Source: Spizellomyces punctatus DAOM BR117 | Taxonomy: Eukaryota | Assembly: GCA_000182565.2 (NCBI GenBank) | Contig: KQ257453.1 | Strand: one strand, 5' to 3' | Length of the DNA: 64,000 nucleotides | Shown: piece after piece, positions 30,430 to 54,138 of the stretch | How positions within the stretch are numbered: the first letter of the stretch is position 1 | Layout: every line of letters begins with the position of its first letter | The notes under the pieces: model-generated | Seen by the model: the letters and a program-made list of their open reading frames with translations, nothing else | Told to the model about the DNA's origin: nothing | Databases searched by the model: none | Made by a program: the position numbers and the translations under genes

Positions 30430-30520
30430 ATTCAATTCAGTTGTTTAGTGTAGAGGTGACAGAAACTGGCACTAGCTACTACACCAGGGAATAAACCGGC
30501 GACAACCGGTTCGGAAAAGC
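30430..30520 (-). ncRNA. Fanzor omegaRNA-like scaffold (30520-30446) plus flanking guide
   Basis: GCUUUUCCGAACCGGUUGUCGCCGGUUUAUUCCCUGGUGUAGUAGCUAGUGCCA...CACUA is the same length (75 nt) as, and colinear with, the omegaRNA of element C (54064-54138). Confidence 0.8.
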
Positions 30521-31194
30521 TACTACTAGGCAATTATACACGCAATACGTAACGGTTGGTTCTAACCGGATAATTGCCCACCACCACACGCGGTCCCTAC
30601 TAGGCCTTGATCTGGAACTCTTGATGGCATTGAAGCCAGACTCTTGCATCCAGGAGCGAATCGACTGGGCAGCATCACAAGCCAGAGGATGTTCAGTGAC
30701 AAGACTTGGAGACTAAAACTGCATGTCAGCGACAGAATGACATGAAAAGAGATGATGCCATCGGTACATACCAACCAAGCTCAACAAATGTGGCAGCATA
30801 ATAGTAGGTTTTGTTATCAGATCCGATTGGTTGCCGCTGGTTCTGATCACGGTTGCTGTCGGGCGGTCGAGGTCCTCAACACCACCACATCGGCGTTCTC
30901 ATGGTTGACCGAGTCACGATGAGGTTGCAATGTGGGTCGCTATGAGGTCGCAATGAGCGTTTGTGCAGATGCTTGCGAGTCGAGGATGGGTAAAGAGGAA
31001 AGAGGGAAAAGGCCCCCCTTTTACAGACCTTTGGCATGCGCCTCACCGCAGTTTAAAAAAAAAAAAAAAAAACATTACAATACATGCCACACCGTTTTGA
31101 GCAGTAGATGGGGGTGCTGATTATGCGATATGATTAACCGGATTGAGCCGGATAATAATGAGTCCTAGTGCCATTTTCAATCACCTCCACACTA
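30446..31194 (-). mobile_element. Element A: non-autonomous Fanzor-family ('ghost') TIR element, 749 bp
   Basis: TIRs 30446-30475 and 31165-31194 match at 26/30. The promoter-side TIR matches the TIR of Fanzor element C at 23/30. CATA lies at its 5' junction on the minus strand (31196-31193). The body is homologous to element B. No Fanzor ORF. Confidence 0.9.
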
Positions 31195-43424: not shown

Positions 43425-45006
43425 CTACACTACAACCCCAGCTAGCGCCGGCCGGGAACGATCCGTCAAGTAGACATGCCCATCATCATGTCTTTCTCGC
43501 TCTAAAGGCATCCAGGGCACCGCCGGGCAGCGTGGAATGGGTTTAGGGGTGTATTGCGAGCGCATAGTCGTCCCCCAGTCCCGGTCGTCGTGCTGTGGAT
43601 TGTAAGTCGCCCTTGGTCTGAAGTCAGCCTCGCGAGTTTGGTGTGCGGGAGGCTGATAGTCCAGGCGGTGTGTGCTTGTCGCATCAAACTTTGTTGGAAC
43701 CGCTTGGTACTTGGGGACAATGCGCAGAAGCCTCTCCACCGTTTTCGGTTGATAGTTATCGTGGTCTGCAGGCAACCTTGTGTCAAAGTTGCAGTCAAAC
43801 AGTAATAAGAGGACAAAGCTTACATGTAGTAGAATCCTGGAAAACGGATTGGTTAGGAGTGTATATAGCCTTTTTCTTCGGTTCCTTGGTCGGTAAGGTC
43901 CAACGGCGGAAGCTGTCTCGATTGGTGGTGACACCTTCAAACTTTACCGGAGACACCACATACGCTTGACGGGGAGCCTAAGCACTTGAATGAGGAAGGA
44001 GGCCGATGGAAAATTAGGAAAGAAAGGGTATACCATGGACAAGGAACTCCTGGGTAACTGATGACCCACGTATGTGGCGCCTGTCGTCGACTTAAATTCC
44101 CTGTGCTCGCCTTATATAAACGTCGTGAAGTAGTGCCAATCAAGGTTACAAAATTACCTGTCTTCTGTTGGACTGACGTAGCTGGCTACCTCTCGAGACT
44201 TTGCTGGAGGAGGAACAGGCCAAGCGCGATAATCTGCATCGTGCGTCGTTACACCTTCAAATCTGGTATTAGGTTTGAGGTAGTCAGCAGCCTTTCGAAA
44301 GGGCCTGGACTGCAATTCAAACGGGCGGAAGTCCCGTCTGTTGGTGGTCTGGCCATCGAATTTGGCTATGAAACAACTACCGTCAGCAGAACCTCAACAC
44401 ATCAGAATGTGGTGTCAATGCTCACCGGTGTTCTCAATATGGTTTGCTTTGGGTCTCATTGATGATACAGTGGTGATTGGCCAAGCAGGAAAGTCATGCT
44501 TCTGAGTAGTGGTAGAATCAAACGGAGCGTCATTTCGAGCATATACGACCTTTTTGGGCTGGCGGTACGCATGAGAATGGCGCTGGGCGGAGATACACTT
44601 TAACCAAAGTACTTACCGGCATCTGCGGGGGAAATGCGTGAGCTACAAACTTTTCCCGACTGTCTCCAATAAAGGGTAGTTTAGCACTTGATGATACATT
44701 TATCAGATCGAGTGGGGAACATCTCATACTTTTCAGTAGAACCATAAAAATCCCCTCCAATTGAGAGCTGCTGGGGATGGGCCTTTCCCCGCAATCGTCT
44801 CTCCGTCTGATACTTCACATAATTGTCTCCATATTCTGGAAGGATCTTATGTTTTAACAGAGCCCTGCCACAAAATGAGACATGTTCTTACCGGTATGAG
44901 CGTCAAGATGCCCTTCCACAGTTCTTGCAACTTTGCACAACTTATGCCTGCCGCAGGTGCAAACAGCGCAGATGCATTTTTCTTCATGCTTCCTAGAATC
45001 ATGCAT
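43425..45006 (-). CDS. Axonemal microtubule-stabilising protein SAXO/FAM154 family
   Basis: N-terminal KCICAVCTCGRHK signature and repeated Mn motifs (FDSTTTQKHDF, FDGQTTNRRDF, FEGVTTHDADY, FEGVTTNRDSF, FDATSTHRLDY). Apparent 1-nt frameshift near 44752. Confidence 0.85.
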
Positions 45007-45174
45007 TGTAGGAAGCGCCAATCTATTCCAGTGTTGACCCGAGTACGAGAAGGTTGAAGCAAGGTCTTCCAGGGGATATATCAGCTATTCATTCATGCAA
45101 CTTATATTCGATCGGCCAAAAATCAAAAAATAGCATCGGGGAATTTGACGATTAGCTGTAGGTAAGCAGAACGC

Positions 45175-45389
45175 GTGACTAAACCCTTCTTTAGTGTGCA
45201 GGTGGTAGAAAATGTCACTAGGGACAAATTCTCCCTCCAACCCACTACAGCCGGTTCTAATTTACAATTAGCCAGCCTGTCCAACCCTTCATAACCTATC
45301 CTGCAAACGAGTCCCACCCCATCCTAACTCGCTACAGATTCCGGCCTGGGTTGAACTGGGGTACGTGCAAAGCAGCACGATTCCACTAA
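45175..45389 (-). ncRNA. Putative novel structured RNA (candidate alternative omegaRNA) plus flanking guide
   Basis: Occupies the omegaRNA position of element A. Several nested stems found by eye and a terminal CUAGUG...CACUA pseudoknot potential. Confidence 0.55.
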
Positions 45390-45919
45390 CTACCACTAGG
45401 CCCAATTACACATGCGATACATTACGGTTGTTTCTAACCGGGTAACTAAGCCCACCACCACGAGAGAAATCCTACAAAGCCTTTGATTCCGAAATTCTTT
45501 AGTCGGAGGATGTTCAGATACTAATTAAACCAGAATTAGACTCGGAATCCGCGTGGGAAAAATCAGCAAGATATACCTGCGATCGTAGCAATATAGTAGT
45601 AGCAGCGTTTGCAAGGGGTTATGTTGTTGTTGTCGGGCGGGCGAGGTCCTCGACACCAGAGCAGTATTCTCATGGTGGACTTGAGAGTTGAGCGTTGGGC
45701 AGATGCTTGCGAGTCGAGAATGGGTAAAGAGGAAAGAGGGAAAAGGCCCCCCTTTTATAGACCTTTGGCATGCGCCTCACCGCAGTTTAAAAAAAAAAAC
45801 ATTACATGCATGCCTCACCGCTTTGAGCGATAGATGGGGGTGCTGATTATGCGATATGATTAACCGGATTATCCGGATAATAATGGGTTCTAGTGCCATT
45901 TTCAATCACCTCCACACTC
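45192..45919 (-). mobile_element. Element B: non-autonomous TIR element of the same family as A, 728 bp, with a different 3' RNA module
   Basis: TIRs 45192-45221 and 45890-45919 match at 25/30. The segment ~45690-45919 is nearly identical to ~30955-31194 of A, with patchy homology down to 45390. The 5' junction reads CAGA instead of CATA. Confidence 0.9.
45690..45800 (-). promoter_or_regulatory. Pol II-type promoter of element B: T11 tract, TATAAAA (45759-45753), CT-rich stretch
   Basis: The minus strand reads T11...CTATAAAAGGGGGGCCTTTTCCCTCTTTCCTCTTTACCC. The same block is in A (T18, TGTAAAA at 31025-31019). Confidence 0.6.
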
Positions 45920-45939
45920 TGCTGGAACTGGTTCGGTCA

Positions 45940-47012
45940 ATGGACATGCGCGAAATGGGGAATGGTTCCCAACAGGACAGTTCAGATCCGTTCGGGGCAT
46001 TCGACATTGACGAAGCAGATTTGGAGCCACTCTATCATCAGGACCGGCTATGCTGTCCACAATGCAGACGAAATCACAAAGTTTTTTGCCCCCGCTGCGG
46101 TAATAACGACAAGACTGGCACCCGCAAAAGAGAAGGGAACTCACTTTTCTATATGCCTTTCTTACTTTACTATAGGCATACCATTAGGCCATACACCTCC
46201 CCATGTCCAATTGCCGATATCTGTGGACATGTATGTTCGACAAGCAGTGTTCTAAAGCTATGACACTCATTCTCGTCGTGCAGTTACCGTGACCCGCGAG
46301 AAACTGAGGGCAAAAGTACGTCAGCACATGCGCGCATCATTGCGCCTGATTCAGTTACAATTAAGGTATGCCTCTGCATGTCGTCCGTCATGTACCAGAA
46401 GGCCAATATAAGTATGGTTGTAGGTAGAAAATATGGTGAAAGCGCCGGATACGTCGAGCATTACAAAGTATACAGATCCGCAACGATGTCTTCTTCTCTT
46501 TCCCTCCGAGGTGTGAGCTGCATGATTTGGCTTCTGACCTGTTGCTGTGTTTGTCATCGATTCCTTCATATGGCTAGGATGCCCTACCGCTAGCTGACAT
46601 AGAGCCAGGTTCTTTCGACAAACTGATTGTGCTTGATGGAACGTGGAAACAAGGGAAGGCGATGGCTGGTGCAATAGCTGGTCAGAGCTTTCAGAGAGTG
46701 TCTATCCGAAGTCGCCGGACCCTCTTTTGGCGTTACCAGCCTTTTGGAGAGACCTACCTGTCGACGATTGAGGCAGTGTACTGGTTCTTTCGAGACTTTC
46801 ATGACGCATATAGCAGAGATCCTTACGATGGTCGCTACGACAATCTATTATTCTATTTTAAACTGCAGTGGGGCCTGATTCAGGACATCTATTCTAGAAA
46901 TCCACAGAAACAGTTCACGTCAAGGAAATTGGATGGGGAAAGTTACATCCGGGGAAGGGCGAGACTGCAGAATAGTGCGAGTCCTCCTGATACGGAGGAA
47001 GCGCAAACTTAA
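45940..47012 (+). CDS. DTWD1: tRNA-uridine aminocarboxypropyltransferase (DTW domain)
   Basis: CPQC...FCPRC, EGKSTSAHARIIAP, LLLFPS, LIVLDGTWKQG, TLFWRYQ, YLSTIEAVYWF and YDNLLFYF. Confidence 0.9.
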
Positions 47013-52005: not shown

Positions 52006-54138
52006 TAGTGCGGAGCCGATGGGTATTGGCACTAGTACAAAGATTCCAACCAATTTAATCATAATTTTACTCGATTTAGACTCATGAACTATGGTTTGAT
52101 CCACAAAATCCTATATAAGTCATCGTCCATTTTCCCAGGCTTTCATCTTTTTCTACAGATATCATCATGCCACCAAAGAAGAAGCAAAAGCTCGAAAGGC
52201 TCGAAAAACTCGACAAACCTACTTGCTTACATACCTGCAACAAGACTTCCTTTGCAAAAGCTTTCCTGCCAAACTACCACCAACGGCTTCTAGATTACAT
52301 CGCCATCATCCATCAACTCGCCGACCACGCTTCCCACGCTCTCAAATTCTACATCCTATCTGCACCAACCTTTCCCACAGTAAATGAAGATACAATCGAA
52401 GCGATTCTCTATCTTCTCAACAAAGGAGAGGCTTGGCAGCCAAAAACTGATGCGAAAAAGGCGTTACGCAAATGCTTGTTGCCATACATTTGTCAGTACT
52501 GCCGCATCGGCTTTGTTCATCCAAATCTACGAGGCGAGCAGCAGTCAATCAATTACTTGACAGCGAGTATGATGACAAACCTGAAAGTCAATGTTCAAGA
52601 GCATTTCATGCAGATGCTCCTTCGGTATATCAATCTGCGGCTCGATGTGAAGGGACAGAAGCAGCAACTGCCACCTAAAAGTGATGTGCGAAAGGCTTTC
52701 TTTGCTCGTCTTCGCTACTTGAAGTCAATTTTCCTTTTTGATATTGTGCCCGAGTCACTCGATGACTTGACCGCTGAAGAGAGTGAGCTTCTAGAAGAGA
52801 TGTGGTCCTTCATTCCCCTTTCCGACCAGCCACTCACATATTCAGTTGCTGTAGACCCTCTCGCCTTCTTCCCTGCCTACTGTCGGTTGTCAAGCCTATA
52901 TGAAAAGCATGGATTTCGACGGTTCAGTGCAATCCCACTTCGCCGCTCCCTCATCCAAAGCCATGTGCGGATCGACACCGTCATCCTCTACTCTCATATC
53001 CTTTGCATCACGCGGCGAGACGCAGAAGCTGTAGCAAAGGTCGATTTATGGATGCACATCTGCAATCTACGTACCAAGGCTTTTCGGTCTCGCCGCGATA
53101 TGCAGTTTGAAGGCTCGATCACAACGGACGGTACCTCGGTGTCTGTGTATTTGAAACACCCCAACGCCGACAAGTATGGAAAGCGTGGAGCGAGAAAGTC
53201 AGCAAAGACCCTAGAAGCTGAGGTGAAGGCAGTATATGTGGAGAACAACTTACCTGCTTGTTGAGCAGAGAATGTTGTCGTTATCGACCCAAACAAGCGC
53301 GACATTCTCTACTGCCAGGACGGCAATGGTACAACGTTTCGCTACACCGCAAACCAGCGAGCCATGGAGACAGGCAGCCGTCGGCAGCGAAAGGAACAAC
53401 AGCAGATGAAGAAGGAAGTGGGAATGGACGTCATAGAATCACGAATACCATCTCACAAGACGATGAACCTCATGGACTTCACTCGCTACCTTCTTGTTCG
53501 CCGCGCAGATTCGGATCGTCGCAAGGAATTCTACTCCCATCCCGCCCACACACGGTGGAAGTGGCATTCCTTCATCAGTCGGCAGCGAAGTGAATCAGAC
53601 CTCATAAGTGCCATGCACAACAAATACGGTGAAAACTTTACCATTGTGATGGGTGATTGGAGCGACGCCGGTCGAACTGCGAGATTTCAGACCTCATCAA
53701 AGATGAAAGGTTGGCGCACCCTGTTCAAGCGCAACCGCATTGATTGTTTTCTTCTTGATGAACACAAGACCTCATCTGTTTGCCCTCGCTGTTCATCCTC
53801 TGAGTTTGTCGAGAAAGAATTCAAAGAACGACCTCATTCAAGACCTTGGCGCCGTCGCGAAGGCAAGATGGAAAAAGTCCACGGATTGCTGGGTTGTACC
53901 AACCCTAACTGTTTGCAGCAAGCCTGGACGATGCGCTACTGGAACCGAGATACGCTGGCAACCTGTAATATGCTGACAATCGTGCAATCAATGTTGGATG
54001 GGCACGGTAGACCAGAGGTGTTCAGCAGGGGTGTTCCAGCCGTAGCGTAGATTGGTTAGATTAGCTTATCCGAACTGGTTGTCGCCGGTTCAATTCCTGG
54101 TGCGGGTGCTAGTGCCAATACCCATCGGCTCCGCACTA
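52006..54138 (+). mobile_element. Element C: Spu-type Fanzor1 TIR element, 2133 bp, no transposase
   Basis: Perfect 30-bp TIRs TAGTGCGGAGCCGATGGGTATTGGCACTAG (52006-52035) and reverse complement (54109-54138). CATA at the left junction (52004-52007), TA at both ends, TATATAA upstream of an intronless Fanzor ORF. Confidence 0.95.
52167..54050 (+). pseudogene. Fanzor1 RNA-guided endonuclease (SpuFz1-like) interrupted by one in-frame TGA at 53262-53264
   Basis: MPPKKKQKLERL start and SITTDG as in SpuFz1 (recalled). After the stop, the same frame continues AENVVVIDPNKRD (RuvC-I), VMGDWS, LLDEHKTSSVCPRC, CTNPNC and YWNRD...CNM. 627 codons if read through. Confidence 0.92.

Follow-up and report, generated by a model that had tools for sequence, protein, structure and literature searches.

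A ghost Spu-1 element of Spizellomyces punctatus with a possibly rebuilt and expanded right-end omegaRNA module

One close described counterpart of the locus reported here is the omegaRNA of SpuFz1 (PDB 8GKH), which runs from a 5' UCC through stem-loop 1, a linker of 6 nt, and stem 2 to a guide of 14-15 nt. According to the main text of PMC10432273, the RNA is contacted by SpuFz1 at U5-C6-C7 and in the loop UUGUCG, including G20 at or near the active site, and distal stem 2 (C40-G70) is dispensable. The same text describes 134 ghost Spu-1 loci in S. punctatus, which hold ~550 conserved nt between ghost-type 30-nt inverted repeats (IRs), have CA before the 5' IR, and carry no Fanzor gene. The 75-nt right end of these loci, again by its account, is similar to the Fanzor-locus omegaRNA and can serve SpuFz1 as a scaffold. 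A 2026 survey (PMC13434818, main text) counted 126 unique ghost scaffolds, 74-76 nt in length, among which several small clusters were divergent and edited poorly; in human cells, editing by divergent scaffolds was weaker than by canonical-like ones. S. punctatus has three Fanzor1 families (Bao & Jurka 2013, Table 1, PMC3627910).

Ghost loci are believed to broaden the range of guides available to SpuFz1, and they are mined as genome-editing scaffolds. Published surveys, as far as their main texts go, handle ghost scaffolds as units of 74-76 nt. In a literature search, PMC10432273 and PMC13434818 were the only papers found to deal with ghost loci, and no mention of a long ghost scaffold was found in the text of either; their supplementary lists may include the present locus, cut to 75 nt. 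Ghost loci and their scaffolds are already published, but no description of a long, rebuilt form was found in these texts.

The window, by which we mean the whole 64,000-nt stretch of DNA that was analysed, contains a SpuFz1-type Fanzor element and two ghost elements, A and B (Table 1). The Fanzor ORF matched PDB 8GKH in phmmer with E values of 2.6e-195 over the N-terminal 365 aa and 3.8e-161 over the C-terminal 261 aa, and is, judging by these matches, a SpuFz1 paralogue, which places the window in S. punctatus or a species very close to it. It has a single in-frame TGA at 53262-53264; its element has intact 33-34-nt terminal inverted repeats and a canonical scaffold. When the protein was used as a tblastn query, no second Fanzor was found in the 64 kb, the only match being the copy at 52158-54047.

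Three stretches of element B, of 240, 72, and 58 nt, aligned to A with identities of 91%, 82%, and 79%, respectively. Read on the minus strand, A and B have in common a left 30-nt IR after CA, a T-tract, a TATA-like box, and the 3' region, and both contain a short exon followed by a GT..AG intron-like segment. In A this segment lies at about 30713-30771 (minus strand), in the place corresponding to that of B, and the intron sequences differ. Because the architecture shared with A fits the published description of ghost loci (PMC10432273, main text), we assign A and B, on sequence grounds, to the group that Saito et al. 2023 called "ghost Spu-1" elements. The ghost body has the appearance of a unit for a spliced non-coding transcript, which would deliver an omegaRNA; its short ORF is not kept between A and B, with a stop at codon 9 in A. 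The right IR of B ends in CACUA, as it does in A and the Fanzor element. CA at 45921-45920 precedes the left IR of B, and the next bases are GA, not TA. At the left junction of B (45918-45921) the sequence is CAGA; A, the Fanzor element, and further copies in the contigs have CATA there, the SpuFz1 TAM plus the terminal TA. This CAGA in place of CATA is a putative sign of decay.

Table 1. Elements in the window and parts of element B, with strand and basis
Feature	Position	Strand	Basis or remark
SpuFz1-type Fanzor element	52006-54138	+	phmmer against PDB 8GKH; scaffold 54064-54138
Element A, ghost Spu-1	30446-31194	-	Ordinary 75-nt ghost scaffold at 30520-30446
Element B, Fanzor-less ghost Spu-1, 728 nt	45192-45919	-	Homology to A, ghost-type IRs, no Fanzor ORF
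Left-end (5') IR of B	45890-45919	-	29/30 identical to the left IR of A (counted by eye)
TATA-like box of B	45758-45751	-	
56-nt GT..AG intron-like segment of B	45521-45576	-	Contig joint 45520/45577 (plus-strand ends CT..AC)
Last stretch common to B and A	45390-45470	-	Pairwise alignments
168-nt block in place of 44 nt of scaffold	45222-45389	-	Alignment against A
Hairpin CGUGC-UGCUUU-GCACG	45364-45379	-	Pair probabilities 0.93-0.99
C-rich linker UACCCCA	45363-45357	-	Directly after the CGUGC/GCACG hairpin
Domain I: 9-bp closing stem, 4-bp stem, 13-bp inner hairpin	45279-45356	-	
Domain II: hairpin GGCUGGCUAAUU-GUA-AAUUAGAACCGGCU	45249-45277	-	
21-bp imperfect hairpin	45247-45192	-	Predicted folds
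Inverted IR copy	45218-45247	-	22/30 identical, ungapped, to the reverse complement of the right IR of B
Right-end (3') IR of B, ghost type	45192-45221	-	24/30 identical to the right IR of A (by eye)
Flank in guide position, 15 nt	45177-45191	-	Analogy with the 14-15-nt guides of SpuFz1 omegaRNA (PMC10432273, main text)

The homology between A and B stops at position 45390 of B and 30521 of A, no more than 1 nt from the 5' end of the 75-nt scaffold of A (scaffold limits from predicted folds and the main text of PMC10432273). The interval from there to the 30-nt IR is 44 nt long in A and 168 nt long in B. An earlier note on this DNA had proposed that B carries 168 nt where A has 44 nt of SpuFz1-type scaffold, that this block is unrelated to that scaffold, and that it occupies the omegaRNA slot. 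Our alignments agreed on all three points: the block lies at the right end of B, on the same strand and within 1 nt of the scaffold start, its local alignment scores against the SpuFz1-type scaffold were within shuffle range, and every string quoted by the note was found exactly where it had been placed on the minus strand. The 44 nt of A, together with part of the IR, matched the right end of the SpuFz1-type element at 83.9% over 56 nt. When the 75-nt right end was compared with the Fanzor-locus omegaRNA, B was similar only in its 30-nt IR part, and the block again fell within shuffle range.

Nine local alignments of the 168-nt block with A, the Fanzor element (either strand), the rest of B, and the block itself gave nothing above shuffles, with 41 to 171 of 200 shuffles scoring at least as high. 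An origin of the block from internal duplication, the Fanzor CDS, the ghost body, or an ordinary scaffold was rejected, since all nine alignments were within shuffle range. No other sequence resembling the block was found within the 64-kb window. Rfam 15 (including ribozymes, snoRNAs, and SRP) gave no match at the gathering score in the whole window; at E up to 10 on 45100-46000, there was none on the block and there were two weak matches (E 5.8 and 8.9) outside it. The possibility of a known RNA or ribozyme, which the note had wished to see excluded, thus found no match on the block, either in Rfam or with ARAGORN. A by-eye idea of a tRNA-like block or scaffold with a B-box was dropped, as ARAGORN returned 0 genes. 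An exact-pattern scan with a 22-nt piece of the block had 0 matches in metagenome, viral, and prokaryotic genome contigs, and a degenerate IR pattern had 0 matches in metagenome contigs.

The inner 109 nt (45356-45248) showed a strongly strand-dependent predicted fold. On the minus strand, the fold reached -40.0 kcal/mol (z -3.66), a value equalled by 0 of 200 shuffles, compared with -18.9 kcal/mol on the plus strand (z -0.76; 45/200 shuffles). Its 38 predicted pairs consisted of 29 Watson-Crick and 9 G-U pairs, with no A-C 1x1 mismatch. For reference, the scaffolds in the window gave z -3.84 for A (0/200 shuffles) and z -2.95 for the Fanzor locus (2/200), and the last 75 nt of A folded like the Fanzor-locus scaffold, with stem-loop 1, a 6-nt linker, and stem 2. 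Longer stretches of B gave z -1.77 for the whole 218 nt (7/200 shuffles as good) and z -2.27 for the 198-nt segment (7/300); the whole segment (198-218 nt) is predicted to fold only modestly better than shuffles. The predicted strand bias favours the strand that would carry the ghost transcript and the omegaRNA. The claim that G-U wobbles favour the minus strand was borne out by the 109-nt z scores and the 9 G-U pairs. A fold no better than shuffled sequence, named in the note as counting against its proposal, was not what we found for the minus-strand 109 nt.

At the level of single helices, domain I gave an MFE of -28.4 kcal/mol on the minus strand (z -3.33; 0/200 shuffles) and -13.2 kcal/mol on the plus strand (z -1.01; 32/200). 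Domain II gave z -2.41 on the minus strand, with three of 200 shuffles as good, and z -1.62 on the plus strand, with 12 of 200. Several helices drawn by eye in the earlier note recurred in the predicted ensemble. The hairpin CGUGC/GCACG did so at the pair probabilities given in Table 1 (0.93-0.99), the inner hairpin at 0.64-1.00 (mostly 0.8-1.0, save one pair at 0.32), and CUAAUU/AAUUAG at 0.55-0.83. The enclosing stems UUCAACCCA/UGGGUUGGA and GGCCGG/CCGGCU fared otherwise, with an ensemble probability of 0.00; the ensemble partner of UUCAACCCA was the nearer GGGUUGGA at 45287-45280. The proposed final stem GGAGAAU/AUUUUCU was absent from the predicted folds, its register having a probability of at most 0.01, and AGAA/UUCU instead paired two positions off that register, inside the 21-bp imperfect hairpin (45247-45192). 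The sequence GGGUUGGA occurs twice on the minus strand, 44 nt apart (45280-45287 and 45236-45243), and either copy can pair with UUCAACCC at 45355-45348. As two copies face a single UUCAACCC, two mutually exclusive folds are predicted, one of which competes with the terminal hairpin.

The last 56 nt of B consist of the right IR and an inverted copy of it, which overlap at a central CTAG. The alignment score of the inverted copy was reached by 0 of 2000 shuffles, and no full inverted IR copy was found in A or the Fanzor element. Of the eight mismatches in the palindrome, only one would allow a G-U pair (counted by hand on the alignment), which points to an inverted duplication at the DNA level that has since drifted, rather than to a selected RNA stem. 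The terminal 56-nt hairpin, with the base UAGUG/CACUA, was the MFE structure when 59 nt or 198 nt were folded. With 224 nt, the probability of this base was only 0.16-0.18, and A45246 is replaced by C in the second copy, which breaks it.

The B module has several features in common with the SpuFz1 omegaRNA. It lies on the same strand and at the same element position, and starts with a hairpin followed by a pyrimidine-rich linker, which take the position of stem-loop 1 and the linker of the canonical scaffold with a different sequence. Its terminal hairpin has a 5-bp base ending in CACUA directly before the flank. This base, next to the guide position, is UAGUG/CACUA in B and UGGUG/CACUA in SpuFz1, and B keeps equivalents of U35, G37, A72, and A75, given in the main text of PMC10432273 as SpuFz1 stem-2 contacts. 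However, B is without U5-C6-C7 and has GGAAU and CGUGC-UGCUUU-GCACG in that place, and its loop UGCUUU is no sequence counterpart of UUGUCG in stem-loop 1 of SpuFz1. Whereas the linker passes directly into stem 2 in SpuFz1, 109 nt (45356-45248) lie between the two in B. Stem 2 itself would be a full IR-IR palindrome in B, but in SpuFz1 it is formed by 9 upstream nt and the IR folding on itself. Because the contacts of the 5' UCC and the stem-loop-1 loop are not conserved, an RNA from B would probably be a poor SpuFz1 guide at best.

Like other ghost Spu-1 elements, B has no Fanzor, ghost-type 30-nt IRs, a conserved body of ~550 nt, and a right-end RNA module running into the flank; the CA before the left IR is present but followed by GA in place of TA. 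Unlike them, it has about 44-45 of the 75 scaffold nt swapped for 168 unrelated nt, and an inverted IR copy adjoins its right IR. By analogy, a right-end guide RNA with a guide taken from the flank would also be shared with the TnpB/IscB omegaRNAs (reRNAs) of IS200/IS605-type elements, from which B differs in being eukaryotic, IR-flanked, and TA-associated, with a putatively spliced transcript and no protein gene in cis. As in Tc1/mariner-like MITEs and foldbacks, B is short and non-autonomous, with TIRs, a flanking TA, and subterminal inverted repeats. In contrast to these, it has a candidate guide-RNA module, assigned by analogy, and internal palindromes that are predicted to be stable on one strand only.

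We compared the locus with contigs from four of the 24 public runs listed (X1, X7, X10, and X11). Whether these four are RNA or DNA is not on record, and two are marked 'DNA?'; X16 and X18, which are on record as RNA (shares 0.12 and 0.11), lie outside the four runs compared. Contig depth was not read as copy number or expression, as it cannot rank parts of a gene. Contigs on the 168-nt block were present in all four runs. An X11 contig of 341 nt ran unbroken from 45113 in the flank through the IR and the block to 45458, and an X10 contig of 420 nt ran from 45177 through the block to 45520 and continued at 45577-45630, skipping the 56-nt GT..AG segment. The exact joint 45520/45577 was seen in one contig each of X7, X10, and X11 (three of the four runs, kind unrecorded). 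One X10 contig ended at 45177, in the flank at the guide position, and a contig end is not an RNA end. Contig sums along B were very uneven, with zero cover of the B flanks in X1; no reading was drawn from this.

An X1 contig of 1249 nt carried 45194-45286 at its end, with four other letters and eight gaps, and 1149 nt off this locus. Because these 1149 nt do not lie on the B locus, there is a second locus that carries, at minimum, the 65 nt of the block nearest the IR. The earlier note had regarded a single-copy segment as speaking against its proposal; block material was present at one further locus or more. At 45343, three contigs overlapped in X1 and four in X7, which points to several versions of the block. 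The contigs held six substitutions in the block and IR, four of them on predicted pairs. Three of these kept the pair (C-G to U-G, U-G to C-G, and A-U to G-U, all one-sided transitions) and one broke it. No compensatory double change was seen among the contig substitutions, and four changes at paired sites are too few for covariation. All four runs differed from the window at 45320 and had an additional letter following 45316. Further differences, at 45338 and 45343, were present in three of the runs, among them in the X11 contig spanning the B locus. These differences at 45316-45343 stem either from strain variation or from a mistake in the assembled sequence of the window.

Our preferred reading, held tentatively at a probability of about 0.42, is that B represents a minor ghost Spu-1 subfamily whose right-end omegaRNA module has been rebuilt and expanded. 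We read the module as rebuilt because the block lies between a ghost body and a ghost IR and the guide-proximal hairpin comes from the element's own IR. Judged by this context, the slot has not simply received an unrelated RNA gene, and the block is not evidently a scaffold that belongs to another system. The module, probably transcribed with the ghost transcript, would begin with the short hairpin and C-rich linker, continue with the 109-nt two-hairpin domain, and end with the 56-nt IR palindrome, which would yield a long stem-2-like hairpin with the base UAGUG/CACUA directly 5' of the guide position. In the mechanism that we propose, the spliced non-coding transcript of the ghost would include the block as its 3' part, a SpuFz1-family protein would hold the stem-2 base and the flank-encoded guide, and the added 5' domains would form a structured extension with a protective role.

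The SpuFz1 paralogue in the window, the layout shared with A, the ghost-type IRs, the strand-specific fold, the retained stem-2 base, the contigs on the block in all four runs, its presence at a second locus, and the three pair-keeping substitutions support the rebuilt-module reading. It is weakened by the missing SpuFz1 contacts, the 109 nt that separate the linker from stem 2, and the G-U compatibility of only 1/8 mismatches, as well as by the base probability of 0.16-0.18, the A45246C change, the modest whole fold, and the lack of any compensatory change. The CAGA left end and the poorer editing by divergent ghost scaffolds in the main text of PMC13434818 also weaken it. The guide capacity of the B module is uncertain and, for SpuFz1, likely weak. 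It is improbable, in our estimate, that B-type ghosts encode a natural ~200-nt guide RNA, combining a SpuFz1-like stem-2 base and guide with a new 5' domain, that is loaded by SpuFz1 or by one of the other two S. punctatus Fanzor1 families.

The main rival reading is a decayed or composite ghost, in which the ordinary omegaRNA module was lost, 142 nt (45389-45248) of filler or captured DNA separate a truncated ghost from a minimal IR-IR pair, and the fold is incidental, with no guide function. The terminal 56 nt have the look of a bare IR-IR mini-element (22/30 identical; 0/2000 shuffles) whose mismatches are mostly unpaired, the block has no similarity to any scaffold, and the SpuFz1 contact motifs are missing. 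The left-end TA has changed to GA, and the short ORF of the ghost body was not kept between A and B. Random filler, however, would not be expected to give a strand-specific fold over 109 nt (0/200 versus 45/200 shuffles), nor 9 G-U pairs with no A-C mismatch, although strand-biased mutation could mimic this. The block also occurs at more than one locus, and the breakpoint falls no more than 1 nt from the 5' end of the scaffold. On balance, we consider decay somewhat unlikely.

The earlier note had favoured a distinct guide-RNA scaffold for another Fanzor subfamily or a different RNA-guided protein, which would be encoded elsewhere in the genome. Such a scaffold would account for 5' two-thirds that are unrelated to the SpuFz1 type and well folded on the right strand. 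S. punctatus has three Fanzor1 families to draw on (PMC3627910, Table 1), and no further Fanzor is encoded in the window. Yet B is of the ghost Spu-1 type in both IRs and throughout its body, with nothing but ghost sequence 5' of the block; the guide-proximal hairpin derives from an inverted duplication of the IR of B and reproduces the base of SpuFz1 stem 2; and no partner protein was found in the 64-kb window. We therefore depart from the note here and regard a foreign scaffold as quite unlikely. The probability is smaller still that an independent foldback or MITE-like repeat (about 45356-45236) was inserted into a ghost scaffold. The ends of that segment are indeed the inverted repeats UUCAACCCA/UGGGUUGGA and GGCCGG/CCGGCU, and several overlapping contigs cover parts of the block, but inspection by eye found no target-site duplication at the borders, and the sequences on either side of the insert do not add up to an ordinary 44-nt scaffold. 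The fold is strongly strand-asymmetric, unlike that of a recent DNA palindrome, and no further copy was found within the 64-kb window.

If it proved to be a guide RNA of ~200 nt, the B module would be a eukaryotic scaffold that gained a domain within a single transposon family. An active B module would show how far the RNA can vary and still work, and would provide a natural accessory domain; an inactive one would show how ghost loci decay. In either case, B is informative about which regions of the omegaRNA selection acts on in the native host.

Two further observations concern the borders of the block. A contig of 1428 nt from X7 ran from 45219, in the right IR of B, into the downstream gene region (about 43792-45219, minus strand), with zero differences over the 120 nt compared. 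If X7 is RNA, B may read through into a neighbouring transcript or supply its 5' end. At the other border, UAGU-type short repeats (CCUAGUGGUAGUUAGUGG) occupy 45384-45399 on the minus strand, at the end of the region common to A and B; in contigs of X1, X7, and X11, position 45384 is followed by an additional 4-nt unit.
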